A DNA stretch of 64,000 nt, taken from positions 49,053-113,052 of the forward strand of contig CAWIRZ010000048.1 in assembly GCA_963838695.1 (NCBI GenBank). The letters are read 5' to 3'. A program made the translations under genes and the position numbers. Every line of letters starts with the position of its first letter. Within the stretch, counting starts at the first letter, position 1. The notes under the pieces are model-generated. The model was not told the origin of the DNA, searched no databases, and worked only from the letters and a program-made list of their open reading frames with translations. This document shows positions 50,581-64,000 of this stretch, in pieces. The stretch comes from an uncultured beta proteobacterium. Lineage in GTDB: Bacteria > Pseudomonadota > Gammaproteobacteria > Burkholderiales > Burkholderiaceae.

Positions 50581-51594
50581 TCAGCTGCGATCGCTCGCAT
50601 CGCTGTCGCCAACATGCGAGCGATGAGCGTCGATGCATTTTTCTTCTTCCACTTGAACGGTCGTGTGTTCGATCCTGAACGTCGCGGCCAAGCGACGCTG
50701 AACCGCGGCGACGACTTCATGCGAAGCCACACCGGGCGTCGGGTGGACATGCAAGGTGACCATATGCCGCTCCGCGGTAATCGACCATGCATGAATATGA
50801 TGCGCATCGCGCACTTCAGCCACGTTGCGCTCGAGATCGGCTTTGATGTCGGCCAGGCTGACGCCTTCCGGCGTGCCCTCGAGCAGGATATGCGCTGACG
50901 ATTTGACGATGCCCCAGGCACTTTTGAGAACGATCACCGCGACGAAGATCGAGAGAAGCGGATCGATGGGCGTCCAACCGGTGAATAGGATTACACATGC
51001 TGCGGCGATGGCCGCCACGGAGCCGAGCATATCGCCGAGCACATGCAGCCACGCGCCGCGCAGATTGAGGTTCTCGCGGTTGCCGCCGTGCAGGGCCGCG
51101 AACGCCGCGATGTTCGCCGCGAGCCCTGCCAACGCGACGATCAACATGGTCTTACCGAGCACGGGCACCGGTTCCGCGAACCGCCGCACGGCTTCGATCA
51201 CGATCCACGCGGCGATGACGAACAGCGCGCATCCATTGACGAATGCGGCGAGGATTTCGAGCCGCTTGTAGCCATACGAGAGCCTTGCGGTGGCGGGGCG
51301 CTTCCCATAGTGAATGGCGGCCCAGCTGAAACCGAGCGCGGCCGTGTCGCTGATCATATGGCCGGCATCGGCCAGTAGCGCCAGGGAGCCGGACAGCAAG
51401 CCGCCTACGATCTCCACCACCATGAACGTTGCGATGACCACGAACGCCAAACCGATGCGGCGCTGATCGGTTACGCCATGCAGATGGTCGTGCCCGGCGT
51501 GGCTGTGGTCGTGTCCCGCATGGTCGTGGGTGTGGCCGGCGTGGCCGTGGCCGTGGTCGTGGCTATGATCGTGATCGTGATGAGAATGCGCCAT
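50581..51594 (-). CDS. cation diffusion facilitator (CzcD/ZitB-type) metal exporter with His-rich N-terminus
   Basis: 'MAHSHHDHDHSHDHGHGHAGHTHDHAGHDHSHAGHDHLHG', then 'SGSLALLADAGHMISD' and 'HVLGDMLGS'. Confidence 0.9.
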   Translation of the reverse strand: MAHSHHDHDHSHDHGHGHAGHTHDHAGHDHSHAGHDHLHGVTDQRRIGLAFVVIATFMVVEIVGGLLSGSLALLADAGHMISDTAALGFSWAAIHYGKRPATARLSYGYKRLEILAAFVNGCALFVIAAWIVIEAVRRFAEPVPVLGKTMLIVALAGLAANIAAFAALHGGNRENLNLRGAWLHVLGDMLGSVAAIAAACVILFTGWTPIDPLLSIFVAVIVLKSAWGIVKSSAHILLEGTPEGVSLADIKADLERNVAEVRDAHHIHAWSITAERHMVTLHVHPTPGVASHEVVAAVQRRLAATFRIEHTTVQVEEEKCIDAHRSHVGDSDASDRS

Positions 51595-52620: not shown

Positions 52621-53292
52621 TTACGAACCGTTGACGCGACGGGCCTTTTTGGCTGCGTCGCTACTCTTGCCGGGGCGTGGTGGGCTTTTAGCAATCGATG
52701 CCGCACCGGTTATCTGCTCCATCCAAGATAGCGCGTCGATGTACGAGAGAAACTGCTGGAGGTACCCCGGCGATAGCGCTTGCATCAGCGATAGCGAGCG
52801 GTGCACAAGGCTGCTCGAATTGAGTGGTCCCGGGTTTCCAGGTACTTGCGCGAGCGATTGCCGTAGCTGCTTCTCGGTGCTCATTCTCGACCAGATTTCT
52901 CTGAAGTCGTCGAGCAACGGCAGTTCGGGATAGGGGGCCGACCGAGCGGTAGGGCGCTGAGTTGCCAATCCTTCGCCGCGCGCCAATGCATGCGCCTCCA
53001 GATACTCCACCAGTCCCGCAAGCGCACCCCGATCCGGCTTGCCTAGCGATTGCGCGCCGACCGAATCGTTAGGTTGCCGCGCTTGAAATGCGGCACGCTC
53101 GAGATCGCCCGCGTAAGCATCGAGCAGTTCGCCGAGCCTATTGTCCAGAGCCCGTCGCGCTGCTCCGCTGTGCGTGGCCGAGCGCCGCGCCAGTGCTTCG
53201 ATGAAATGGAAGCGGATGGGATCCATGCGGTCCGCGCCTTGCTCGCGCCATGCGTCGAGCATCGATCGGGCGCGCGTCGCGCCGTTACTCAT
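52621..53292 (-). CDS. uncharacterised soluble helical protein (I recall this family as DUF2894; needs an HMM check)
   Basis: Its ATG 53292 overlaps the upstream MotB-like gene by 8 nt. No TM segment and no catalytic motif recognised. Confidence 0.7.
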   Translation of the reverse strand: MSNGATRARSMLDAWREQGADRMDPIRFHFIEALARRSATHSGAARRALDNRLGELLDAYAGDLERAAFQARQPNDSVGAQSLGKPDRGALAGLVEYLEAHALARGEGLATQRPTARSAPYPELPLLDDFREIWSRMSTEKQLRQSLAQVPGNPGPLNSSSLVHRSLSLMQALSPGYLQQFLSYIDALSWMEQITGAASIAKSPPRPGKSSDAAKKARRVNGS

Positions 53293-53929
53293 GAGACACC
53301 GCTGTGGCCGATGGCTTCGGGATCGGCGCGATTTCGACGCGCCGATTCTTGGCACGCCCCGCGCTGTCGGCGTTCGAGCCCACCGGCTGCTGGGCGCCGA
53401 ACGCAGCCGCGAAGACCGACGAAGCAGGTACGCCCGCATCGATCAACGCACGGGTGACCGTCAGTGCGCGCTGGGCCGAGAGCTCCCAGTTATCGGCGAA
53501 TTGCTTGGTGCCGCCACGTACTTGGCGGTCGTCGGTGAAGCCGCTCACCATCAGGATTTCGTCGCGCGCCACTAGATACCGGGAGAGCGGCCCCGCCAAA
53601 CTCTTCAGCACGTCTCGGCCTTCGGGCTGCAACTGATCCGAGTTCAGCGCGAACAACACACTGCCGCTGATACCGATTCGGCCGTTGACCAGCGTTACCC
53701 GGCCCGCGGCCAGCGGGCCCGCCAACGCGTCTTCCAAAGCCTTGCGGCGCTGCGCTTCTTGGTGCCGCTGCTGGACCTCTTTCTCGAGCTTCGTCGAGAG
53801 TTCCAGTTGCGCGCCGATGACGCACACCAGGATCAGCATGAAAGCCCCCAGCAGCACCGACATCAAATCGCCGAACGCCGCCCAGATCGGCGTGACGTGC
53901 TCCACGCCGCCGTCGATTTCCTCGCTCAT
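53285..53929 (-). CDS. MotB/OmpA-like protein (single TM with conserved Asp, plus OmpA_C peptidoglycan-binding domain)
   Basis: 'PIWAAFGDLMSVLLGAFMLILV' is a MotB/ExbD-style TM segment with Asp21. 'GFTDDRQV...NWELSAQRALTVTRALIDAGV...GRAKNRRVEI' is the OmpA_C domain. Confidence 0.85.
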   Translation of the reverse strand: MSEEIDGGVEHVTPIWAAFGDLMSVLLGAFMLILVCVIGAQLELSTKLEKEVQQRHQEAQRRKALEDALAGPLAAGRVTLVNGRIGISGSVLFALNSDQLQPEGRDVLKSLAGPLSRYLVARDEILMVSGFTDDRQVRGGTKQFADNWELSAQRALTVTRALIDAGVPASSVFAAAFGAQQPVGSNADSAGRAKNRRVEIAPIPKPSATAVSHE

Positions 53930-56022
53930 GCCGCTGCGGCTCCAGCCGATGCCCGCGGGCCCGCGAGCTGTTGCAGATCTTCGATGATTTGTTTCTGCGA
54001 CATCATGCTGAGGTCGATGACTTCTCTCGCCTGCGCGACGTAGTAGGCGAGCTGCTCGTCGCTGCGCGCGAGCGACTTGTCGAGTGCCGCTTCGATACGC
54101 GTGAGATGCGTCACCAAAGCGTCGTTCGATTGGCCGAACAACTGGACGGCGGCACCGAATGCTTCGCCAAGGCTCGCGACTTCGACCGCGCTACCGGTCA
54201 CTTGCGCCGCGATCGCGCCGAGTTTTTCGGTTTCTGCGTCGACCCTCGCGGCGAATTGCGTGCCGACGCGCTCCAGCAGAGTGGCCGACGTGGCGACGAG
54301 CGCATCGACAGCCGATCGTTGTTCGGTACTGGCGAGGTTGACGGCATCGAGCAACGTTTCCAGCGTTGCCAACAAGCGGCTGCGTTCTTCAAGCATGGCG
54401 GTATCGCGCACCATGCTCTCGGAAAGTTTCTGTCGTAGTTCGGCGACGACTTCAGCCGCCGCCTTGGGCGCTTCCGATGCAGCTTGTACGAGTCGAGCGA
54501 TCTCGTCGATCGTCTCGCTGGCGCGCGCTTGCGTATCGGCGGAAATTTCACGTGCGGTCTGCGCGAGCACATTGCAGATGTCCTGCTGCCGGTCTGCCGT
54601 ACGCTTGCCTGCTGCGTCCCATTCGTTGCTCAGCGTAGCCGCCATTGAGCCGAGCGTTTCGGTCCAGGCCGCGAGCCGCTGCTCGTCGCGCGCAGCGAGT
54701 TCGGCCTGTAACTGCGCATGAGAGCGATCGACGTTTTGCAGCAGCGCAGCAGCGTGCTGCTCGAATGTGGCCGCGGCAGCTTGCAGGGCTTCGCGGTTGC
54801 GATCGGAAAGAGTCTCGCCGATCCTTTCTTGCTGCGATAGCGCCGCAGTCCACGCTTCCGACATATTGCCCGTGGTGACATCGAGGCGCGCCGCTACGTC
54901 TTGCAGCAGCTTGCCCGAGCGTTGTTCGAAAGTTTCGGTAAAGCCGGTGAGTGCGGTGTTCAACTGCCGGGCAAGCGCCTCGCTCGATTGACGGTGTTCC
55001 GTCAGCGCGTGGTTCCAGATGCCCGACACCGTCTGCGTCGCAGTCTGGAAACCATCCGAGAGCCCATCGAGTTGCCGCTCGACGGCTCGCGTGACAGCGT
55101 CGTGCAAAGAGGCTGTCTCTTGCGCGAGCCCGGCCATCGTCGCTTCCACGACCGGTTGCAGGGCGGCACCGGCTGCGCGGGCGCTGTCGGTCACGGTCTG
55201 CCTCAACGACTGTTCGACGGACGAAGCCAATCGAGAGTAAGCGGCCTCGACCCCGCGGTGAAACGCATCTTGGCTCGCCAGTTGCCGCTCGTTCGCGGCC
55301 ATGCTGTGTTGTTCGATCGTCGACATCATCGTTTGCAACCGATCGACGAGCGCGGGCATCGTTTGCGCCTGCTGCTGCAGGAGCTTAAGCATCTCCTCGC
55401 GCTGATAGGACTGCGAAAACACGCGCAATGTCGTGGCGATCTTCACGTCGAGGCGCTGCGCCGCTTCGATTCTTTCGCGCCGGCACAACGCGGAAAGCAG
55501 CCCGAGCATGGCGGACGTCGCCACGCCGGCGATCGAGGTACCGAATGCAAACCCCAGACCCTTGACGGGCGCAGCGAGCGATGCCCGGATCGCTTGCAGA
55601 TCCGTCGCGCTGTCGAGCGCCATGCCGGTGCCTCTCAAGGTGGCAGCCATGCCCAGCAGTGTGCCCAGCATTCCGAGCAAGACGAGCAATCCGACCAAGT
55701 AGGGGGTCAGCGCCGGCCCGGGCAAGGCCACGCGCTCGCCCTCGATGCGCAGACGCACCGCGTTGCGCAAGCTCACCGGCAGTGGATCGAGGCAAGCGGC
55801 CAGGCTGGGCGGCGCCGCGGACAGACCGTCGACGGTGCGCACCAAAGCGGCGGTAGCTTGGCTGTAGCGTCGAAGTTCGAGTGCGCCGGCTATGTAGCAA
55901 GCACCGACCAACAGCGTGACGGCTAGCGCGAGCGAGTTCGAGCCGACGTAGCCAACGCCGACCCAGCAGAGCGCGGCAAGGCCGGCCAAGAAAGCGACGA
56001 TGCTGATGAGATGTCTGGACAT
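53926..56022 (-). CDS. MotA/ExbB/TolQ-like channel protein with a roughly 470-aa helical tail (I recall this family as DUF802; needs an HMM check)
   Basis: 4 TM segments. The last pair, 'PYLVGLLVLLGMLGTLLGMAATL' and 'GLGFAFGTSIAGVATSAMLGLLSALC', resembles the MotA_ExbB core. The rest is Ala/Gln/Glu/Leu/Thr-rich helical repeats. Its stop overlaps the MotB-like start (ATGA). Confidence 0.8.
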   Translation of the reverse strand: MSRHLISIVAFLAGLAALCWVGVGYVGSNSLALAVTLLVGACYIAGALELRRYSQATAALVRTVDGLSAAPPSLAACLDPLPVSLRNAVRLRIEGERVALPGPALTPYLVGLLVLLGMLGTLLGMAATLRGTGMALDSATDLQAIRASLAAPVKGLGFAFGTSIAGVATSAMLGLLSALCRRERIEAAQRLDVKIATTLRVFSQSYQREEMLKLLQQQAQTMPALVDRLQTMMSTIEQHSMAANERQLASQDAFHRGVEAAYSRLASSVEQSLRQTVTDSARAAGAALQPVVEATMAGLAQETASLHDAVTRAVERQLDGLSDGFQTATQTVSGIWNHALTEHRQSSEALARQLNTALTGFTETFEQRSGKLLQDVAARLDVTTGNMSEAWTAALSQQERIGETLSDRNREALQAAAATFEQHAAALLQNVDRSHAQLQAELAARDEQRLAAWTETLGSMAATLSNEWDAAGKRTADRQQDICNVLAQTAREISADTQARASETIDEIARLVQAASEAPKAAAEVVAELRQKLSESMVRDTAMLEERSRLLATLETLLDAVNLASTEQRSAVDALVATSATLLERVGTQFAARVDAETEKLGAIAAQVTGSAVEVASLGEAFGAAVQLFGQSNDALVTHLTRIEAALDKSLARSDEQLAYYVAQAREVIDLSMMSQKQIIEDLQQLAGPRASAGAAAA

Positions 56023-56047
56023 AGTGCTCCAGTAATCCTGTATTCGG

Positions 56048-56791
56048 TTAGCGGGTGCGAAGGGCAGCGAGCAATCCTTCGACCGGTTGAAAACGAACTT
56101 CGAGTTCGGCGAGTAGCGCGCTTTGCATGTCTTTGCGGAACACGTCCAACCATGCACGCGGCGAGTGTTCCTGCACGGTGCCCGATGCTTCGGCATCGGC
56201 GAGTGCGGCCTGCTCGGCCTGGCGCAAACGCTCGAAATACTTGGCGAGCAACGCGGGGATGCCTGCCAGCAGGCTTTGCTCGCGCGGGGCCAACGCGCGT
56301 TCCATGACGGCATCCACCATGGCGAGCCGCGCCATTTCGGGCGTGCGGGCGGCGAGCGCGCCGCGCAGGCGCTCGCGCAGGTTGCCGACGGCCGTCTCCA
56401 TCTCGCGCTGCATGTACAGATAGCGCTGACGAAACACGGAATAATCGACCGAGGCATCCGCGGTGCTTTCCAGCGCGGGTGCCTGAGCCGGCCCGCGCTG
56501 TTTGAGTGCGGCGAACACGGTGTCGTCGGCGATGGCTTTCCTCAGCGCAGCACGCACGCGAGCGTACTCGCTCTCCACGGCGCGCGCGCTGGCGCGTGCG
56601 TCGGAGGCGACGACCGGTGCGTTGCCGTTCAGCGCGGAGGACAGCGTAATGGCGTCCGTCCAGTTGAGCCATTGGCTGAGCCGGTCGGAGAGCGCTTGTC
56701 GATCGTCGGGAACGTCGGCGCCGGTCAGACGCGCGAGCAGGCGAATTAGGGTCGGGCCGCTTAGGGCTGTGCGCTGAGGGGCTTCCACCAT
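56048..56791 (-). CDS. uncharacterised protein, first gene of the stator-like operon (I recall this family as DUF3348; needs an HMM check)
   Basis: 247-aa soluble helical protein. Lies 25 nt upstream of the MotA-like gene on the same strand. Confidence 0.7.
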   Translation of the reverse strand: MVEAPQRTALSGPTLIRLLARLTGADVPDDRQALSDRLSQWLNWTDAITLSSALNGNAPVVASDARASARAVESEYARVRAALRKAIADDTVFAALKQRGPAQAPALESTADASVDYSVFRQRYLYMQREMETAVGNLRERLRGALAARTPEMARLAMVDAVMERALAPREQSLLAGIPALLAKYFERLRQAEQAALADAEASGTVQEHSPRAWLDVFRKDMQSALLAELEVRFQPVEGLLAALRTR

Positions 56792-56880: not shown

Positions 56881-57287
56881 TTGGCGGTCTTCAAGACCAG
56901 GGTGTTCGCCCGCTGGGCCGACAAAGAAGGCGTAAGCGATTCGGCGTTGCTTGCGGCAATGGAGGAGATAAGCCGAGGGCGGATTGATGCGAACCTCGCG
57001 GTCATGTTTTCAAGGACCGTATGGGCATCGGCGGACGAGGGAAGAGCGGCGGGGTGCGTACGCTGCTGGGGTTGCGGGCAGGGGGCGAGCCATCTTCGGA
57101 CTATCGAGTGTCCCAGCCCGACGGAAGTACGCTGATTAACGCGGACGGCCTGCGGCAGCATCGCCCACCTCCACCGACGCCCAATACCACCTACGCGACG
57201 ACCGGAGCGCAAGCCGATTTCCAACCGCTGTCCGAGCGAACGGTGCCACCTCTATCTGCTGCCGGGGGGACGATGTTGTGTCATTAA
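56881..57287 (+). pseudogene. decayed RelE/ParE-superfamily toxin gene (several frameshifts)
   Basis: 'AVFKTRVFARWADKEGVSDSALLAAMEEISRGRIDANL' continues in a second frame as 'GHVFKDRMGIGGRGKSGGVRTLLGLRAGG...INADGLRQ'. This matches the layout of toxins of the 'FKTKxFxRWAxKE...GKSGGxRTL' type. No antitoxin ORF follows. Confidence 0.5.
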
Positions 57288-57516
57288 TCTTGACCAAAAC
57301 CTCAACGAACCGGCATAGCGAGAAAACCGGCAAACCGATTTTCTGATAGACCGTTCTGTTTTTAAAAAATCCTCGGTTTAATGCGCTCGACAATTCGCTT
57401 TCGGTGAGGTATAGCCGCGCTCTCCGTATCGGCGTGAGTGCCTATGGAATGCTGAAAATGGTACTTCCCCATAAAACGGAAAGAAGTTCACGGCCTGCGT
57501 TTTAGTCGTGCGACTG

Positions 57517-57544
57517 TTGACAAAAACACTGGAATCATTACAGT
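57517..57544 (+). promoter_or_regulatory. candidate sigma70 promoter
   Basis: TTGACA (57517-22), a 16-nt spacer, then TACAGT (57539-44). Lies about 110 nt upstream of the 27-codon ORF in an AT-rich intergenic region. Confidence 0.5.
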
Positions 57545-57587
57545 AACGCAAAACACTGATCGGAACGATATGTCGATTTGCCCGTAA

Positions 57588-57642
57588 AACGGCAAAAGCC
57601 GTTGCTCGCCGGTCTTTAGCGAGCATTCTTCAATCTTGTTTT
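57588..57642 (+). promoter_or_regulatory. structured 5' leader: two hairpins, the second followed by a U-rich tract
   Basis: AACGGC-aaaa-GCCGTT at 57588-603. TGCTCGC (57603-09) pairs with GCGAGCA (57619-25), followed by ttcttcaatcttgtttt. The SD AGGAGAG at 57644-50 comes directly after. Confidence 0.45.
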
Positions 57643-57654
57643 CAGGAGAGAGCT

Positions 57655-57738
57655 ATGTCCCAAACGACTCCGCAACAGCCTGTCATTGTGGTCAAACCGC
57701 GTAACCCGCGTCCTGTGCTGATTCCCGTTCACCTGTAG
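57655..57738 (+). CDS. 27-aa Pro-rich peptide MSQTTPQQPVIVVKPRNPRPVLIPVHL (candidate RiPP precursor, or a regulatory leader peptide)
   Basis: Not in the supplied ORF track because it is too short. ATG 57655 sits 4 nt after AGGAGAG, with a TAG stop at 57736-38. It lies directly upstream of three RRE-like/HDO genes on the same strand. Confidence 0.55.
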   Translation: MSQTTPQQPVIVVKPRNPRPVLIPVHL

Positions 57739-57763
57739 GAAATAGTAGGTTCCCGTGAAGGGC

Positions 57764-57791
57764 CGGAGCCATCTGAACAACGATGGCTCCG
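57764..57791 (+). promoter_or_regulatory. 10-bp perfect hairpin between the peptide ORF and the first enzyme gene
   Basis: CGGAGCCATC (57764-73), loop tgaacaac, GATGGCTCCG (57782-91). No U tract follows. Confidence 0.7.
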
Positions 57792-57802
57792 TGCATAGAT
57801 CA

Positions 57803-58816
57803 ATGCGGCCGGAGGAAAGCGTGGATCAAATTATCTCGGATTCCTGTAGATTCCGTTTGAATTCATCGGTTATCTCGAATATGCCGCTCGTCGTCAAAAC
57901 GGCAGCCGGTGACGAGTTTGAAATCGAGGCTGGCGCCATAACGGCGGACGAAACAGCCGGCCTGCTCGGCAGCCTTGCCGAAGACCGCGATGTCGACGAG
58001 ATCGCGGGCCTGCTTCCCACTCGATCGCGTGAGAACGTTCGCACGCTGATGGCCTACTTGGCGGCACACGGAATCGTTCGCCCCGTCGTGCCTTCGACGG
58101 GGAAAACCGGCCTCGATGCGCTGTTGGAAATCGAAGATTTGTCGAACCGATTGCTATACGATACGCTTTACCGAAACGAGTTCTGGGTCAACTGTTCGAA
58201 AGCCGCGAAGCGGGGTGACATCCCGGAGTCGGTCATTTACGGCATGGTCATCGAAAACTATCATTTTCTCTTCCGTGAAAGCTACTTCGATGCCCCGGTG
58301 CTGTCGTTTGTTTCGAATACGAACGTTCGCCTCGCGATGAATGCCTTTTTCGCCGAGGAGTATGGCCACGACGAGTTGCTTCTGAAATCGCTCAATCAAA
58401 TCGGCATCTCGCGAGAAGACTTGGCGCATACAGTGCCGTTGCCGCAGACTATGGCGCTATGCAACAGTCTGGCTTATTGGTCCCACAACGATCCGATATT
58501 TTTCTTCACGACGCTCGGCATCCTTGAAGGAAAGGATATCCGGCAGGATTCATTCCTCGACGCGTCGTACCGCGTCGGCATTGACCCCGATTTTCTGAAG
58601 CCGGTGAAGGCGCACTCCGACATTAATTTGAAGGGCGAGCACGGAAGCCTGACACGGAAGATTTTTTCACAAATCCCGGTGGTCGACGAAGAAACAATGC
58701 GCCGCTTGCGCGCGCAGACACATCTCTTTATCGAGCTATACGACGCTTTCTATTCGGCCGTCTGGCGACACTATTCGCACGCCGGCGAGTTGCTGCGGCA
58801 CATCGATCGCATCTGA
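57803..58816 (+). CDS. HDO-A: haem-oxygenase-like di-iron oxidase (iron-containing redox enzyme family) with a PqqD/RRE-like N-domain
   Basis: Ligand-type motifs 'IENYHF', 'AEEYGHDE', 'GILEGKD' and 'KAHSDINLKGEHG'. The N-domain 'ITADETAGLLGSLAEDRDVDEIAGLL...VRTLMAYLAAHGIV' is PqqD-like. The start is ATG 57803 or GTG 57821 (GGAGGA SD). The track start at 57755 would span the hairpin. Confidence 0.75.
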   Translation: MRPEESVDQIISDSCRFRLNSSVISNMPLVVKTAAGDEFEIEAGAITADETAGLLGSLAEDRDVDEIAGLLPTRSRENVRTLMAYLAAHGIVRPVVPSTGKTGLDALLEIEDLSNRLLYDTLYRNEFWVNCSKAAKRGDIPESVIYGMVIENYHFLFRESYFDAPVLSFVSNTNVRLAMNAFFAEEYGHDELLLKSLNQIGISREDLAHTVPLPQTMALCNSLAYWSHNDPIFFFTTLGILEGKDIRQDSFLDASYRVGIDPDFLKPVKAHSDINLKGEHGSLTRKIFSQIPVVDEETMRRLRAQTHLFIELYDAFYSAVWRHYSHAGELLRHIDRI

Positions 58817-58839: not shown

Positions 58840-59847
58840 ATGCAGGCACCGAGCACGAACGACCTTTTCACTTTTCCGACCTTGCGCACCGGCGTCGAGG
58901 TCGAGAACACGGACGACGGGATTGCACTTATCTACGGCAACCAGTCGTGCGATATTTTCGCCGACGGCGAAACGAAAGAGCCGCTGCGCGCGCTGATCGA
59001 CTCCATGAGAAACGGCCACGCAACCGTCGACGACCTGCGCGCACGGCATCGATCGGTCGCGGCCTCGATTGATCCGCTATTGGAGGAACTGGACCGGCTC
59101 GGACTCGTCACCGAGTCGAAATTCGAGTGGCCCACCGATGTGCGCTCGGGACCGGAATTCAACGCACGCATTCGAGACCTGGCGGTCCGGGCCATGCGCT
59201 CACGCTGCAATTCGCGCCTATTCTCGATGATGGAAGACGGGTCGCTGACGCGCGAAATGCTCATCGGCTACGCGCTCGAATATTACTACTTGGTGCGCGA
59301 GGCGCCCGGACTCATCGCGCCGGCAATCTCGCAAGCCGACAGCCGGAGGAACCGGCAGGCCATTCAGCGCTTTCTCGTATCGGAGCTCGATCACGACTTG
59401 ATGTTGGCCGAGAGCCTGAAGGCGGCGGGCATCGACACATCGGACGGCAAGCTAGACTACCTGGTGCCGCTTCCCTCCACGTTCGCGCTGTGTGCAGCGC
59501 TTGGCGTATACGCGAAACAGCATCCGCTATCGTTCAAGAGCATTCTCTTCCTCTTCGAAATTCCCAGCATACGTTTTAACGAAACGCTCACCGCGCACTG
59601 CGAGAAGGTGGGGCTGCCGAAGGCTTTTTCGACACCGTTGCTCACTCATGCCAACATCAACGATTCGCTTGACCACGAAGACGTCACGGCCGAGCTGCTG
59701 AGCGACTTGACGGCCATCTCGCGTGAAGAGCAGCTCGTTGTCGAAAAGAACGTCGTGCTCGCCATCGAAACGATGGTCCAGCAGGAAGAAGAGATCATCG
59801 ACTATTACGGGCGGCCGAACGCTGTCATTCCCCGCATTTTTCAGTAA
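58840..59847 (+). CDS. HDO-B: paralogous RRE-like plus haem-oxygenase-like di-iron oxidase
   Basis: Motifs 'ALEYYYL', 'VSELDHDL', 'FLFEIPS' and 'LTHANINDSLDHED'. N-domain 'ETKEPLRALIDSMRNGHATVDDLRARH...IDPLLEELDRLGLV'. Confidence 0.8.
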   Translation: MQAPSTNDLFTFPTLRTGVEVENTDDGIALIYGNQSCDIFADGETKEPLRALIDSMRNGHATVDDLRARHRSVAASIDPLLEELDRLGLVTESKFEWPTDVRSGPEFNARIRDLAVRAMRSRCNSRLFSMMEDGSLTREMLIGYALEYYYLVREAPGLIAPAISQADSRRNRQAIQRFLVSELDHDLMLAESLKAAGIDTSDGKLDYLVPLPSTFALCAALGVYAKQHPLSFKSILFLFEIPSIRFNETLTAHCEKVGLPKAFSTPLLTHANINDSLDHEDVTAELLSDLTAISREEQLVVEKNVVLAIETMVQQEEEIIDYYGRPNAVIPRIFQ

Positions 59848-59869: not shown

Positions 59870-61360
59870 ATGGAAGCCTGGCAGATTCGCCGTTACGACA
59901 TGCCGTGCCTGGTCCCGTTATCGGCTCAGCTCGATGAAGATGGCCGGACCGTCGTGCTGACCGCGGAATCGAACGAATACGAGATCGCGTCCAACGAAGT
60001 CGATGGTCAGCAACTGCTCGAAAGTCTCCTTGCGATGACGGATCCCAACGCGCAGATCTGGGTGGATGTCAATGACGGTCACGCCTTGCCTTGGCAAGCG
60101 TCGCTGGTGCAGCAGCTCGACGAGCTGTCGCTGGTGCAGAGCAAGCCTGCCGATCAAGACATTCTGGACGAGCGCGCCGCGCTCTGCGAACGATGGGTTC
60201 AAGATGCGGAGCAAACGCTGGCGGGCATGGCGAAAGCACAAACCGAAGCCTATCGAAGCGCTATTTCCGCCTTCATCCAAATCCTCGATACCCCGCCGCC
60301 GCAAGTGGATGCATGCTCGGTCGCGGACGTTCCCCGCATCGGGGGCCGCGATAACTTCGCCCTGCAGACGTTCTTTCTCCAGAAACTCTACGTCGAAGAG
60401 AACCTGCCGGTCGTGGTGTCGCTATGGCGACAGGTTTTGCATCGGACCGGGTCTCGCCTCGGCATGACGTTCGGCGATTCAGCCTCGCCGCCTCGGGCGG
60501 CTGCGACGAGTATCGGACTCTATTGCACGGCGCACATCCAAGCCTATCTCATGTGCCTCGTCGATCTCGTCCGTCTTGCCACGACCGACGATTCCGCTCG
60601 TCGTATCTACGCAGACGCGCCGCACCTCAGTGTCGAAACCGGCCTCAATTTTATGCGGCGCGCCGAGCAATTCGCGCTCTCGTGCCTCGCTCGACTTGGC
60701 CAGTCGCGCTATGTCGCGATGATCAACGACGAGTCCACCCGATTTGGCCCGCTCGTGCAGGGACTCTTCATCGAGCAATATCACGTGACGCAGCGCTTCG
60801 TGGAAATCATCGCGCCGCTCATGACCAAGCGTACCCGCTCCGCGATCAAGCAACGCGTCTATCGTTACTTTCAGGAGGAGCTTGGGCACGAGGCATTCGA
60901 ACACGCCACGTGCGTCGCGCTCGGCGTTACCCCCCTGCGACTCGACGCGGCATTGCCGCTACCGCTTTTTCAGGCTTACGTCGACGCATTCACCGTCCTT
61001 GGCCGTTACGACGCGATTGGCTACATGAGCTCGATCATGGTCACGGAAGGGATGCTCGGCGTCGACAATCCGGTCCACCATCGCCTTGAAGCGCTCGCGT
61101 CTTCGCTCGTCGACTATCAGCGAGTCGCGAAGCGACACGACGACCTGAACGTCGAATTGAATCACGCCTCGTTGTCGCGATTGTTCTTCGAAGAAGTGCG
61201 CGCCATCTCACCTGAGGCGCAGCAGCGCGCGCTGGCAAATTTGGCATTTCTCATCGAGCTGAACTTCCGCGCGATGGACCAGGTCGCTGATTTTTACGGA
61301 GCCCAACGCGAACTGACCACGTGTTCTCTCTCGACCTATGCGACAGCTTTCGCGCCATGA
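59870..61360 (+). CDS. HDO-C: third paralog, longer (RRE-like N-domain, helical insert, HDO core)
   Basis: ATG 59870 is preceded by AGAGGG. Motifs 'FIEQYHV', 'FQEELGHEA', 'MVTEGML' and 'KRHDDLNVELNHAS'. N-domain 'VDGQQLLESLLAMTDPNAQIW...LVQQLDELSLV'. Confidence 0.8.
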   Translation: MEAWQIRRYDMPCLVPLSAQLDEDGRTVVLTAESNEYEIASNEVDGQQLLESLLAMTDPNAQIWVDVNDGHALPWQASLVQQLDELSLVQSKPADQDILDERAALCERWVQDAEQTLAGMAKAQTEAYRSAISAFIQILDTPPPQVDACSVADVPRIGGRDNFALQTFFLQKLYVEENLPVVVSLWRQVLHRTGSRLGMTFGDSASPPRAAATSIGLYCTAHIQAYLMCLVDLVRLATTDDSARRIYADAPHLSVETGLNFMRRAEQFALSCLARLGQSRYVAMINDESTRFGPLVQGLFIEQYHVTQRFVEIIAPLMTKRTRSAIKQRVYRYFQEELGHEAFEHATCVALGVTPLRLDAALPLPLFQAYVDAFTVLGRYDAIGYMSSIMVTEGMLGVDNPVHHRLEALASSLVDYQRVAKRHDDLNVELNHASLSRLFFEEVRAISPEAQQRALANLAFLIELNFRAMDQVADFYGAQRELTTCSLSTYATAFAP

Positions 61361-62631
61361 GAGATCAAGCGACGGAGGCCGACGCGTACGAGCTTTTCGT
61401 TAACCCGGCTTGGTCGAACATCGTTCGGCTAGCCGGTCTCGACATGCAACCGGTACGTGCGTCCGGTAGCTGGCTGTGCCTGCGCGACGGACGGCAAATG
61501 CTCGACTTCGTGTCCGGCTACGGTGCCATGCCGCTCGGGCATCATCCCTCGGCACTGCTCGAACGTTTGGGCCGCGACTTACTCGGCCCATTGCCGAATC
61601 TCAATCCGCTCGGCATCTGTGCTGATGCCGGCGTGTTGGCCGGGCAGCTCATCGAGCTTGCCGGCATACCTGACGGCAAGGTGTTTTTTGGCAACGGAGG
61701 CGTCGATGCAGTCGAAGCGGCGCTGAAGTTTGCAATGGTGCATACGCGGCGCTCCGGCATCGTGACCATTGCGGGCGGCTTTCACGGCCTGTCGTTGACG
61801 GCGACATGGCTGGCGGGTTCCGATTTCTGGCGTCGAGATTTACCGGCTGCACCCGCTCAGTTCCGGCAGGTGCCGTTCGGCGATACCGAAGCGATCCGTG
61901 TCATGCTCGAGCGCGAGGAAGTGGCCGCGGTCCTACTCGAACCCGTTCAGGGAACCGCCGGCGCGCGCGCCTGGAAACAGTCCGACTTGAAAAGGATTGC
62001 CGACTTGTGCGACGAGCACGGAACGGTGCTGATTTTTGACGAGATCCTTTGTGGCTTGGGGCGAACGGGAGACTGGTTCGCCTACCAGACGCTCGACGTC
62101 CCCGCGCCGCAGATGGTGCTCGTATCGAAGGGCCTGACAGGCGGCGTTTTTCCGGTTTCCGCCGTCTTGATGCAAGACGTCATCTATCAATCGATGTTCG
62201 CGCGAGACAATGCCGCCAAAATTCATGGCTCTACGTTTGGTGGCAACCGACTTGGCATGCGATGCGGTTCGCATGTGCTTTCGCTCCTGCGCGAGTACGA
62301 CGTTTGCTCGAACGCGCGAAGGCAGGGCGACCGCCTGCGTAGCGGCATCGAGCGGATAGGTTTGCCGGCTGGGCTTGTCTGCGAAGGGGTGGGCCTCGTG
62401 CTGTCGATTCGTGCCACGGACGACTGCGCGCAGCGCTTCGGCGACGACGTCGCCGCTCGGCTTTGGCATGCTTTGCTCGCGCAAAACATCGTCACGATTC
62501 CCGCAGCACACGATCCGATGTCGGTGCGGCTGCTGCCGCCGTTGAACGTAACGTCGGGGGAAATCGACCTGTTTCTGGCTGCATTCGATAACGCCGTTCA
62601 CGAATTGACGATCGGCCAGGAGGCGAGATGA
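61357..62631 (+). CDS. class-III PLP-dependent aminotransferase
   Basis: 'NGGVDAVEAALKFA', 'FDEILCGLGRTGDWFA', 'VSKGLTGGVFPVSA' (PLP Lys) and 'HGSTFGGN'. Its ATG overlaps the HDO-C stop (ATGA). Confidence 0.85.
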   Translation: MRDQATEADAYELFVNPAWSNIVRLAGLDMQPVRASGSWLCLRDGRQMLDFVSGYGAMPLGHHPSALLERLGRDLLGPLPNLNPLGICADAGVLAGQLIELAGIPDGKVFFGNGGVDAVEAALKFAMVHTRRSGIVTIAGGFHGLSLTATWLAGSDFWRRDLPAAPAQFRQVPFGDTEAIRVMLEREEVAAVLLEPVQGTAGARAWKQSDLKRIADLCDEHGTVLIFDEILCGLGRTGDWFAYQTLDVPAPQMVLVSKGLTGGVFPVSAVLMQDVIYQSMFARDNAAKIHGSTFGGNRLGMRCGSHVLSLLREYDVCSNARRQGDRLRSGIERIGLPAGLVCEGVGLVLSIRATDDCAQRFGDDVAARLWHALLAQNIVTIPAAHDPMSVRLLPPLNVTSGEIDLFLAAFDNAVHELTIGQEAR

Positions 62632-63542
62632 AGGTAAGACATATTTTGTTGGCCACGCTTGTCGCGGCAATCTGGGGCCTCAGTTTCGTCGTGGTAGCGA
62701 TCGGCTTGCGGGGGTGCCCGCCACTGCTTCTGGCAGCCCTGCGTTTCGTGATCGTATTTGCATTTGGCGTCATGTTGTTTCCGCGCCCCACGTTGCCTTG
62801 GAAACTTTACCTACGAGCAGGTCTTTGCCTGGGCGTCATCCAGTTTGCGAGCTTGTTTTCCGCTATCCACCTGGGCGTTCCGGCGGGCATCGTATCGGTG
62901 CTCGCACAGATGCAGGTATTCATCACGCTGCTGTTGTCGGGCGTCGTCTTGAAGGAATCGTCTTCCCCAACGCAGCAGAGGATGATGGCGCTTGCCCTGC
63001 TGGGTGTGCTATTGCTAGGCTACGCACGGTATCACGCTACGCTTCCGCTCGCCCCGGTCGGGCTCGCGCTCCTCGGAGCGGCTGGCTTCGCCTGGGGAAA
63101 TATCGAATTGAAGCGTGCGGGGAAAGTCGACATGTTCGCTTTCACGGTTTGGATGAGCATCGTCCCACCGATACCGTTGCTGTTTCTTTCCATGCTGGTC
63201 GAAGGAGGGCCGACGGGATTGTTCGACGCGCTGAAGCACCTGTCCTGGACCAGCGTATTTGCTCTGTTCTTCCTTGCGATAATCGGTACGCTGTTTTCGC
63301 TCGGAGCCTGGGGGCGGCTGATGAGCCTATATCCGGTTGCGGTGGTCGCGCCGTTCTCCCTGGTGAGCCCAGTTTTCGGTATGTTGGGTGGGTACTTTAT
63401 ACTGAACGAGCACTATGACACGGTGAGCGTTATCGCTTCGGGCTTGATCGTCTTCGCACTCGCCGGGAATACTTATGCGTCGAGGATCAATCAGCGTAAC
63501 GTCAGCGCTCGACGGTCGGCGGCCTCAACTCTGAAGAGCTAA
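62628..63542 (+). CDS. EamA/DMT-family transporter (likely exporter)
   Basis: 10-TM-type pattern. 'LLATLVAAIWGLSFVVV' and a duplicated EamA-like half. Its ATG overlaps the aminotransferase stop (ATGA). Confidence 0.85.
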   Translation: MKVRHILLATLVAAIWGLSFVVVAIGLRGCPPLLLAALRFVIVFAFGVMLFPRPTLPWKLYLRAGLCLGVIQFASLFSAIHLGVPAGIVSVLAQMQVFITLLLSGVVLKESSSPTQQRMMALALLGVLLLGYARYHATLPLAPVGLALLGAAGFAWGNIELKRAGKVDMFAFTVWMSIVPPIPLLFLSMLVEGGPTGLFDALKHLSWTSVFALFFLAIIGTLFSLGAWGRLMSLYPVAVVAPFSLVSPVFGMLGGYFILNEHYDTVSVIASGLIVFALAGNTYASRINQRNVSARRSAASTLKS

Positions 63543-63545
63543 AAA

Positions 63546-64000
63546 ATGACGATCGACGCATTACGCATATCGAGCGATAAAAGCGAACTGGATATCGATG
63601 TCATTCACGCTTTTCTCCGCGATCATGCTGCGTGGGCGAAGGGTATTCCCAGGGAAACCCTCGAGCGTGCGATCGAAGGGTCGCTCTGCTTCGGCGCGTA
63701 TCTGGGCAAGCGCCAGATCGGCTTTGCTCGCGTCGTGACGGATATGGCCACGTTCGGCTATCTCTGTGACGTATTCGTCCTGCCGGAATACCGATCGCGC
63801 GGTTATGCGGCCGCGCTGATGCGTCACGTCTTCGACGCTGATCTGCTCAAAGGGCTCCGCAGGATCGTTCTCGTCACGACGGATGCACACGGTGTCTACC
63901 GCCCGCATGGGTTCAACGCGCTGGCCAACCCCGAGCGGTATATGGAGCTGCATCGGCCCGACGTCTACGCGTCGTCCAGCTGTGTTGAGCTTGAGCGTCC
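63546..64000 (+). CDS. GNAT-family N-acetyltransferase (3' end outside the window)
   Basis: My own translation gives 'MTIDALRISSDKSELDIDVIHAFL...IGFARVVTDMATFGYLCDVFVLPEYRSRGYAAALMRHV...'. It is absent from the track because no stop lies inside the window. It starts 3 nt after the EamA stop. Confidence 0.75.
   Translation, partial: MTIDALRISSDKSELDIDVIHAFLRDHAAWAKGIPRETLERAIEGSLCFGAYLGKRQIGFARVVTDMATFGYLCDVFVLPEYRSRGYAAALMRHVFDADLLKGLRRIVLVTTDAHGVYRPHGFNALANPERYMELHRPDVYASSSCVELER

Follow-up and report, generated by a model that had tools for sequence, protein, structure and literature searches.

Probable precursor peptide of an RRE-dependent pathway with three heme-oxygenase-like diiron oxidases in an uncultured Burkholderiaceae bacterium

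The described systems closest to the locus analyzed here are the pathways to pyrroloquinoline quinone (PQQ), and to the daptides and mycofactocin, all of which use peptides that are ribosomally synthesized and then modified post-translationally (RiPPs). In the PQQ operon a very short precursor gene, for PqqA, comes first, and a domain of the RiPP recognition element (RRE) type, PqqD, is paired and sometimes fused with an oxidase of heme-oxygenase fold, PqqC (as in the PqqCD fusion of Methylorubrum, PDB 5vrd); the few invariant residues of the peptide are the site of the chemistry, and the product is a small molecule. Daptide and mycofactocin precursors have an invariant C terminus (Thr in daptides, Val-Tyr in MftA) and are recruited by an RRE protein; in daptides, oxidation is followed by action of a class-III aminotransferase on the new carbonyl, while in mycofactocin the modified C terminus is cut off to give a small molecule. 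The present analysis concerns a stretch of 64,000 nucleotides, here called the window, from an uncultured beta proteobacterium of the Burkholderiaceae (contig CAWIRZ010000048.1), in which a short open reading frame (ORF) for a 27-residue peptide is followed by genes for three heme-oxygenase-like diiron oxidases (HDOs). The available evidence is that this ORF very likely encodes the precursor or scaffold peptide, i.e. the substrate, of an RRE-dependent, HDO-catalyzed pathway targeting an invariant C-terminal His-Leu. The features on which this proposal turns are as follows.

57644..57649, + strand: Shine-Dalgarno sequence AGGAGA, 5 nt before the peptide ATG, read directly from the sequence
57655..57738, + strand: candidate precursor peptide gene encoding MSQTTPQQPVIVVKPRNPRPVLIPVHL; ATG start, 27 aa including 6 Pro, TAG stop
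57803..58816, + strand: HDO1, RRE-like N-terminal domain plus predicted heme-oxygenase-like diiron oxidase domain (PF14518 Haem_oxygenas_2, E = 2e-9)
58840..59847, + strand: HDO2, predicted RRE domain (residues ~10-95) plus predicted heme-oxygenase-like diiron oxidase domain (PF14518, E = 1.3e-6)
59870..61360, + strand: HDO3, RRE-like N-terminal domain, a middle region of ~190 aa and a predicted oxidase domain (PF14518, E = 6e-4, a weak match below the gathering score)

Comparison with PQQ biosynthesis is instructive in both directions. In the window, too, a very short gene comes first in the operon, RRE-type domains are joined to oxidases of heme-oxygenase fold, a few peptide residues are invariant, and PqqC and PqqCD are among the best structural neighbors of the HDO2 catalytic domain. 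By contrast, the radical-SAM enzyme PqqE, PqqB and PqqF are all absent from the window operon, and the peptide, which contains neither Glu nor Tyr and ends in His-Leu, lacks the Glu-x3-Tyr motif of PqqA, so that the locus does not belong to the PQQ pathway. The RRE is N-terminal in the HDOs but C-terminal in PqqCD, there are three paralogous oxidases rather than one, and PqqC works without a metal cofactor whereas HDO1, HDO2 and HDO3 keep what by analogy is the full diiron ligand set. With the daptides and mycofactocin the locus shares an invariant peptide C terminus, the likely mode of recruitment by an RRE and, in the window operon, a class-III aminotransferase; it differs in that oxidation there is the work not of HDOs but of a dehydrogenase/decarboxylase in daptides and of a radical-SAM enzyme in mycofactocin, and in that the window operon has neither a methyltransferase gene nor one for an MftE-type peptidase. 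Assignment to the daptide pathway itself was considered and rejected, the aminotransferase scoring 166 bits against a cut-off of 450 for NF041821 and the peptide ending in His-Leu rather than Thr.

Other precedents bear on the chemistry. MboA, an HDO of mangotoxin biosynthesis, desaturates the C-terminal residue of a tripeptide, the C-terminal carboxylate being bound to Fe1, and this carboxylate-Fe binding mode is shared by AetD, UndA, HrmI and PolF (PMC13185094). MboA is therefore of use as a model, by analogy, for reactions at a C-terminal Leu with a free carboxylate, although its substrate is made by an ATP-grasp enzyme, it has no RRE domain, it needs a redox partner (MboB) and its sequence similarity to HDO1 is marginal. 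The pathways of the MNIOs (DUF692; oxidative enzymes that depend on multinuclear non-heme iron) resemble the one proposed in that non-heme iron, dioxygen-dependent enzymes modify ribosomal peptides, but MNIOs have a TIM-barrel fold and work with separate partner proteins. Nitrilobacillin, considered as a relative on account of its C-terminal modification, is made by an asparagine-synthetase-like enzyme together with MNIOs and is unrelated (PMC13060819). The sole ribosomal-peptide case cited for HDOs in a 2026 review of the superfamily is thiovarsolin (PMC13108848), the clusters of which are defined by YcaO/TfuA, both absent at the window locus.

The ORF reads as the earlier note on this DNA had described it (57655-57738 on the + strand, 27 residues, six of them Pro, containing 'RPVLIP'), and has in addition a good Shine-Dalgarno sequence; most of the homologous small ORFs are likewise preceded by motifs of the GGAG/AGGA type. 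The peptide MSQTTPQQPVIVVKPRNPRPVLIPVHL consists of a variable N-terminal part, a beta-strand-like segment, VIVVK, and a conserved tail, R-P-x-L-[IMV]-[AP]-x-H-L-COOH. No NCBIfam model matches it. Because a tblastn search with the 27-residue peptide returned no match at E <= 1e-5, its homologues were located by position: a scan with an HDO2 profile, taking one genome per species, gave 49 loci (L001-L049). Full-length relatives of HDO2 occur in Paraburkholderia, Chromobacterium, Sorangium, Sphingomonas, Nostoc and others. The earlier note had held that lack of conservation, in sequence or position, would tell against a function for the ORF. In the window and in 46 of the 49 loci a co-oriented small ORF was found directly upstream of HDO1, in every case ending in His-Leu and a stop. 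The loci come from Beta-, Gamma- and Alphaproteobacteria, Myxococcota, Nitrospinota, Acidobacteriota and Actinomycetota; carriers include Paraburkholderia, Burkholderia, Chromobacterium, Pseudomonas, Sodalis, Dyella, Sphingomonas and Sorangium, and metagenome-assembled genomes (MAGs) of Nitrospinota, Pyrinomonadaceae and Actinomycetota. The order HDO1-HDO2-HDO3 is kept in most loci, HDO3 following HDO2 in 43 of 49. In the three cyanobacterial loci (L023, L042 and L048) an HL-ending ORF was found nowhere; these have divergent HDO sets without HDO3 and probably represent a different sub-family. Representative peptides of the family are listed below.

Chromobacterium: VVVVKPRNPRPVLVPVHL
Paraburkholderia (P.) phymatum group: VVVKPRKARPVLIPVHL
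Sorangium: RIRLKTGVMAGPVVAVHL
Sphingomonas: FLFTVEKADGRPTLIAIHL
Burkholderia cepacia complex: YLVTVNKPDGTPTLIAIHL
Pseudomonas: IVIKAKHQRPILMAAHL
Sodalis: IIIVAKKTRPVLMPSHL
An Actinomycetota MAG: MKITVTPRKKRAAGVALHL

The peptides share the motif [VIL]-K-x4-R-P-x-L-[IMV]-[AP]-x-H-L, in which the His and Leu do not vary across all 20 distinct 16-residue tails. The N terminus is variable, and lengths as called range from 19 to 102 residues, though the two longest probably use an upstream ATG. In one group of loci (L024-L044; Sphingomonas, Burkholderia cepacia complex, Dyella, and Pyrinomonadaceae and Alphaproteobacteria MAGs) the precursors are long, with 59-60 residues, and have a second conserved, N-terminal block, TVHEVK…N-x-FDG-x-K-x-DLYINTG-x-LGGKHF, which includes an LGG motif; it may serve as a signal of its own, for recognition or for cleavage, or may reflect distinct docking sites for the three RREs.

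The pattern of nucleotide variation points the same way as the synteny. Over the last 18 codons there are 20 synonymous and no non-synonymous variants among the 10 loci of the P. phymatum-type clade, 9 synonymous and none non-synonymous among the 6 Chromobacterium loci, and 9 synonymous against 3 non-synonymous in the window clade. The codons of the two terminal residues themselves vary (CAC/CAT for His; CTG/TTG/CTC/CTA/CTT for Leu) while the residues remain constant. Such near-exclusively synonymous variation is the signature of a peptide that is translated, functional and under purifying selection at the protein level. A chance ORF is ruled out by the synteny and codon evidence.

The three oxidases each have ~100 extra residues at their N terminus, HDO3 having a further insert of ~190 residues. 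Pfam searches with 22 HDO2 N-terminal domains (E <= 10) and a profile search against PDB sequences gave only weak winged-helix matches (MarR, ArsR, Z-alpha and the DnrK N-domain); since sequence searches failed to detect an RRE, structure prediction was needed. The AlphaFold2 model computed for residues 1-100 of HDO2 from 39 sequences (pLDDT 85.6) has a small beta-sheet followed by three helices, and its top Foldseek matches in the PDB are almost only RREs, with probabilities up to 1.00 and TM scores of ~0.6. The matched structures comprise those of ThcOx (a cyanobactin oxidase), McbBCD (the synthetase of microcin B17), TigE, MccB (an enzyme of microcin C) and SuiB, the PbtF RRE bound to a peptide (8t19), and lasso-peptide B1 proteins with bound leader (6jx3, 5v1v). 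By profile-profile comparison (hhalign) the three N termini are homologous to one another, with probabilities of 96.8 % for HDO1-HDO2, 88.6 % for HDO3-HDO2 and 94.5 % for HDO3-HDO1. The N-terminal domain of HDO2 thus looks, on its model, like a peptide-docking module of the RRE type, and those of HDO1 and HDO3 like its homologues. RRE domains are substrate-recruiting modules, and such domains imply a free peptide ligand.

The catalytic domains appear to be competent. A pattern E...ExxH...E...H-x3-N-x4-H is kept in each of the three paralogue families: E151, E186/H189, E242, H271, N275 and H280 in HDO1; E147, E182, H185, E240, H270, N274 and H279 in HDO2, invariant in 103 sequences; and E337/H340, E393, H423, N427 and H432 in HDO3. 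Each enzyme thus retains the full set of diiron ligands, as assigned by analogy, and none of the three looks like a dead scaffold. The PF14518 matches and the model of full-length HDO2 (pLDDT 93.7) bear out a seven-helix heme-oxygenase-like fold, the nearest folds to the HDO2 catalytic domain (Foldseek, probability 1.00) being CADD, PqqC, HrmI, UndA and FlcD, with Sden_3740 and the natural PqqC-PqqD fusion as further neighbors. The nearest solved sequence to HDO1 is MboA (E = 0.002); NCBIfam has no model for HDO1 and gives only chance-level matches for HDO2 and HDO3. The family is small: of 1.84 billion representatives, 330 match at E <= 1e-3 and 64 at E <= 1e-30. Four database relatives (P0178, P0186, P0189 and P0196; 690-705 aa) are of double length, with the HDO2 match in the C-terminal half and two matched stretches; these apparent natural HDO-HDO fusions of ~700 residues would suggest that the paralogues work as a complex.

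Six genes follow the peptide closely on the + strand, HDO1, HDO2, HDO3 and those for an aminotransferase, an EamA protein and a GNAT enzyme, with operon-like spacing (ATGA start/stop overlaps and gaps of 22-64 nt). HDO1 may start at ATG 57803 or at GTG 57821, the latter being preceded by GGAGGA. The remaining elements of the operon are:

57517..57544, + strand: promoter-like TTGACA-16 nt-TACAGT, a consensus match only, ~110 nt upstream of the peptide ATG
61357..62631, + strand: class-III (PLP) aminotransferase (PF00202, E = 3.6e-65), its ATG overlapping the HDO3 stop (ATGA)
62628..63542, + strand: EamA/DMT-family exporter (PF00892, E = 6e-20), its ATG overlapping the aminotransferase stop (ATGA)
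63546..64000, running off the window end, + strand: GNAT N-acetyltransferase (PF00583, E = 1e-13), starting 4 nt after the EamA stop

The promoter-like site agrees with the consensus at 10 of 12 positions and is the sole match in 57200-58000, where shuffled sequences give a mean of 0.6 matches. The GNAT gene was missed by the ORF lists because it is truncated at the window end. The best NCBIfam matches of the aminotransferase (PigE, ArgD and the daptide aminotransferase) are all generic class-III families and lie far below their cut-offs. Besides the window clade, the clusters of Chromobacterium, the P. phymatum-type clade, Pseudomonas, one Sorangium and the Actinomycetota MAG contain the aminotransferase. 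The EamA gene is kept in L001, L002 and Chromobacterium, and an EamA-family protein follows the aminotransferase in L010. Within the cluster, homologues of the GNAT enzyme with 48-82 % identity are encoded in L001, L002, Chromobacterium, the Actinomycetota MAG (L028), Sorangium (L019-L021 and L025) and Pseudomonas (L045/L046), the gene recurring in six of the lineages just named for the aminotransferase; their occurrence within the cluster in distant clades suggests the tailoring of, or self-protection against, an amine-bearing product.

Accessory genes differ between clades. In Burkholderia and Dyella the gene just after HDO3 encodes a GMC oxidoreductase, and in the Pyrinomonadaceae MAG an aldehyde dehydrogenase. 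The exporter may be an EamA protein, a major facilitator superfamily (MFS) protein or, in Sorangium and Nitrospinota, HlyD plus an ABC exporter with a C39 peptidase, which follows the oxidases or adjoins them (upstream in L021). In L019-L022 and L025 (Sorangium spp., a delta-proteobacterial MAG and a Nitrospinota MAG) HlyD, the C39-peptidase ABC exporter and a second ABC-like protein stand in place of the aminotransferase/EamA pair (e.g. L022:10804-16863). C39-peptidase ABC transporters are the classic exporters of leader-bearing peptides, and their presence in this clade implies leader cleavage and peptide export. The precursors of these loci (…KTGVMAGPVVAVHL) contain TG/AG sites, which might be cleavage sites. 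In the Sodalis / Acerihabitans loci L047 and L049 the cluster is reduced to the peptide, HDO1, HDO2 and an MFS gene, without HDO3, and just downstream is a gene for a type III polyketide synthase (L047:10825-11868 and L049:10761-11801); this gene may or may not be part of the pathway.

From these observations a pathway can be proposed in which the seven genes (peptide, HDO1, HDO2, HDO3, aminotransferase, EamA exporter and GNAT) would act as one operon. The RRE domains would hold the peptide by its beta-strand-like segment (VIVVK in the window) and so present the C-terminal R-P-x-L-h-[P/A]-x-His-Leu-COOH to the diiron sites, where the free carboxylate of the Leu may ligate one iron, as in MboA, UndA, AetD, HrmI and PolF. 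Up to three successive dioxygen-dependent oxidations might then remodel the His-Leu end, probably creating a carbonyl group, since the tailoring enzymes that vary between clades (aminotransferase, aldehyde dehydrogenase and GMC oxidoreductase) all handle alcohols, aldehydes or ketones. In the window the aminotransferase would turn the carbonyl into an amine, the GNAT enzyme would acetylate an amine, by way of tailoring or self-protection, and the EamA protein would export the product, which may be a modified peptide or, as for PQQ and mycofactocin, a small molecule cut from the C terminus.

The suggestion of the earlier note that the ORF encodes a precursor or core peptide is, in outline, well supported by the cross-phylum conservation with the oxidases, by the RRE model of HDO2 and by the recurring aminotransferase and GNAT genes; its guess that 'His or C-terminus' is the target fits too, the invariant residues being exactly the C-terminal His and Leu. 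The ORF has the attributes looked for in a RiPP precursor, i.e. it is short, co-oriented and co-occurs across taxa with modifying enzymes, it bears the mark of purifying selection, and the enzymes carry what appears to be a peptide-recognition domain (from the HDO2 model, with homology for HDO1 and HDO3). Several points nevertheless weigh against assignment as a substrate. The RRE assignment rests on a predicted structure with modest Foldseek E-values (~1e-3), PqqD/RRE having gone undetected in the Pfam and PDB-sequence searches. The operon in the window has no protease gene, and EamA-type transporters usually carry small metabolites, not 27-mers. The conservation sits in the C-terminal part of the peptide and not in an N-terminal leader, an unusual pattern for a RiPP whose core is variable; scaffold peptides like PqqA and MftA would show it, but so would a conserved arrest sequence. 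Translation of the peptide, its binding and its modification are all inferred, and the type and site of oxidation are guesses.

Some of the same points would be accommodated if the peptide were a small partner and not a substrate, docking on the RRE-like domains to assemble or gate three oxidases that act on a free small molecule, e.g. an amino acid. Characterized HDOs mainly use free amino acids, fatty acids and short non-ribosomal peptides (PMC13108848, PMC13185094), the aminotransferase, the GNAT enzyme and the EamA exporter of amino-acid type resemble small-molecule metabolism, and the operon lacks a protease. However, an invariant free His-Leu end, combined with a variable N terminus and lengths of 19-102 residues, fits a substrate better than a folded subunit, RRE domains are established as modules that recruit substrates, and the C39-ABC exporters of one clade point to export of a peptide. 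A role as a non-substrate partner is accordingly judged improbable.

In the region that follows the peptide gene a stem-loop can form:

57764..57791, + strand: hairpin CGGAGCCATC / GATGGCTCCG, a 10-bp stem (57764-57773 / 57782-57791) with an 8-nt loop and no T-run

[quoted passage not shown] The hairpin is real and conserved in position. It starts 26 nt after the stop codon in the window, where 57736-57825 has a minimum free energy of -31.6 kcal/mol (z = -2.3); in the family as a whole, the first 80 nt beyond the precursor stop have a median z of -2.7 against dinucleotide shuffles, with z < -2 at 70 % of loci, compared with a median z of +0.3 for the stretch after the HDO3 stop. Such an arrest would also be in keeping with the conserved C terminus, which is the part that would be located at the peptidyl-transferase center, with a stable hairpin after the stop in ~70-87 % of loci and with the T-runs of L043, L044, L045 and L047, whose hairpins look like intrinsic terminators. 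In the P. phymatum-type clade (L009-L018, e.g. L015:6962-6970) the precursor stop may overlap a possible HDO1 start (TAATG), an arrangement that may also be cited for arrest; such an overlap would couple translation of the peptide and HDO1 and would place the hairpin within the coding region of HDO1.

Positive support for TnaC-like arrest is, however, lacking. The distance from stop to hairpin ranges from about +4 to +27 nt among the loci and the stop codon may be TAG, TAA or TGA, so that the fixed spacing between stall site and terminator or rut element typical of TnaC is not seen; the hairpin sequences are unrelated between clades. In the window the hairpin lies 26 nt from the stop, beyond the reach of a ribosome paused there, it has no T-run, and a terminator scan found none. 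An Rfam scan of 57200-57900 matched no known leader or riboswitch. An arrest peptide would moreover leave the homologous N-terminal domains of all three enzymes, one of them modeled as RRE-like, without a ligand, and the C39-peptidase ABC exporters of the myxobacterial clade imply a secreted peptide. A hairpin after the precursor gene is the usual means by which RiPP operons make more precursor than enzyme transcript, and with this role arrest of the ribosome is not needed; the hairpin would probably raise precursor mRNA over enzyme mRNA by partial termination or by protection of the 3' end. Arrest as the function of the ORF is thus considered as improbable as the partner role, although a regulatory side role of ORF and hairpin could coexist with that of a precursor, as is reportedly the case for mccA of microcin C.

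[quoted passage not shown] The earlier note had drawn attention to a likeness to such peptides, and its premises are for the most part accurate: the apidaecin sequence that it quoted is that of apidaecin 1b, GNNRPVYIPQPRPPHPRL, as printed in PMC11347161, 'RPVLIP' does differ at one of six positions from the 'RPVYIP' of apidaecin 1b, and the peptide is short, with six Pro in 27 residues, several Arg/Lys and a C-terminal basic residue followed by Leu-COOH. The two peptides do not, as had been stated, share a His-x-(x)-Leu end; the window peptide has His-Leu with no residue between, and apidaecin ends H-P-R-L. A five-of-six match to some apidaecin hexamer arose in 3,017 of 100,000 composition-preserving shuffles of the peptide (3 %), which is unremarkable because the reader was free to choose among many comparison peptides. 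Mutational scanning of apidaecin has identified the last eight residues (P11-L18) as the most important, substitutions of P11, R12, R17 and L18 being almost wholly absent and the R17A variant inactive (PMC11347161). The hexamer match does not lie in that segment but in apidaecin's N-terminal half. Within the segment the tail of the window peptide, PVLIPVHL, agrees with PRPPHPRL at 2 of 8 positions (P11 and L18) and has His in place of R17 (position -2) and Val in place of R12 (position -7).

Richness in proline is not a trait of the family. The Pro fraction of the window peptide (0.22) is the highest of 39 distinct members, most of the others having ~0.05-0.08. The final 14 residues of family members include 0-4 Pro, and apart from the Burkholderiales, Chromobacterium and Sodalis clades the peptides have little proline. 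The likeness to apidaecin is limited to one clade. With neither the C-terminal segment nor a conserved Pro-rich composition, the peptide does not qualify as an apidaecin-like PrAMP, and it differs further in its bacterial origin and dedicated modifying enzymes. As to the conservation of 'PRPVLIP', which the earlier note had proposed to check, R-P-x-L-h-[P/A] is kept as a motif of the family that happens to overlap 'RPVLIP', while the proline content is not kept. The likeness looks coincidental, as that note had itself allowed, and does not support a functional inference. Since, in addition, the invariant His-Leu is more simply explained as the target of the enzymes, a role as a PrAMP is very improbable, less probable still than that of an arrest leader or partner.

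Two further features of the window lie outside the operon. Directly upstream, at 53285-56791 on the - strand, are three co-oriented genes, for DUF3348, large DUF802 and OmpA-like proteins, which seem to have no connection with the peptide operon. At 50581-51594, also on the - strand, is a gene for a 337-residue membrane protein with an extremely His-rich N terminus (MAHSHHDHDHSHDHGHGHAGHTHDHAGHDHSHAGHDH…), which by eye looks like a cation-diffusion-facilitator metal exporter.

With regard to novelty, a search of the full-text literature, in which subscription-only papers were not covered, found no paper describing a system of peptide and RRE-HDO, and the main text of a 2025 structure-based survey of RREs (PMC12710340) reports no heme-oxygenase-like fusions. 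A family of ribosomal natural products with three RRE-type HDOs is apparently undescribed so far, and the locus is rated as a pathway of RiPP type whose oxidases belong to an enzyme family in which fused RREs had not been seen before. On balance we favor, with some reserve, the view that it is the founding example of an undescribed class of RiPPs, in which three RRE-fused HDOs cooperate to rebuild an invariant C-terminal His-Leu.

The HDOs are a fast-growing superfamily that catalyzes unusual C-H, C-C and N-oxidation reactions, with substrates so far almost only free amino acids, fatty acids and short non-ribosomal peptides; the proposed pathway, if correct, would extend HDO chemistry to ribosomal peptides recruited via leader recognition, and the operon offers those in search of new HDO reactions a substrate that is defined and encoded by a gene. 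A small ORF ending HL-stop upstream of RRE-HDO genes provides a handle for genome mining, and the locus illustrates a gap in annotation, in that family precursors of 24-27 residues are absent from gene annotation and longer ones carry the label 'hypothetical protein'. Although rare in sequence space, the family is present in many genomes of the Burkholderia cepacia complex, and in Chromobacterium, Sorangium and Sphingomonas. The product is likely to be a new natural product of soil- and plant-associated bacteria and of the opportunistic pathogens of the Burkholderia cepacia complex and, if the proposal is correct, would constitute either a novel pharmacophore or a novel small molecule released by excision, acting as an antimetabolite, signal or cofactor.

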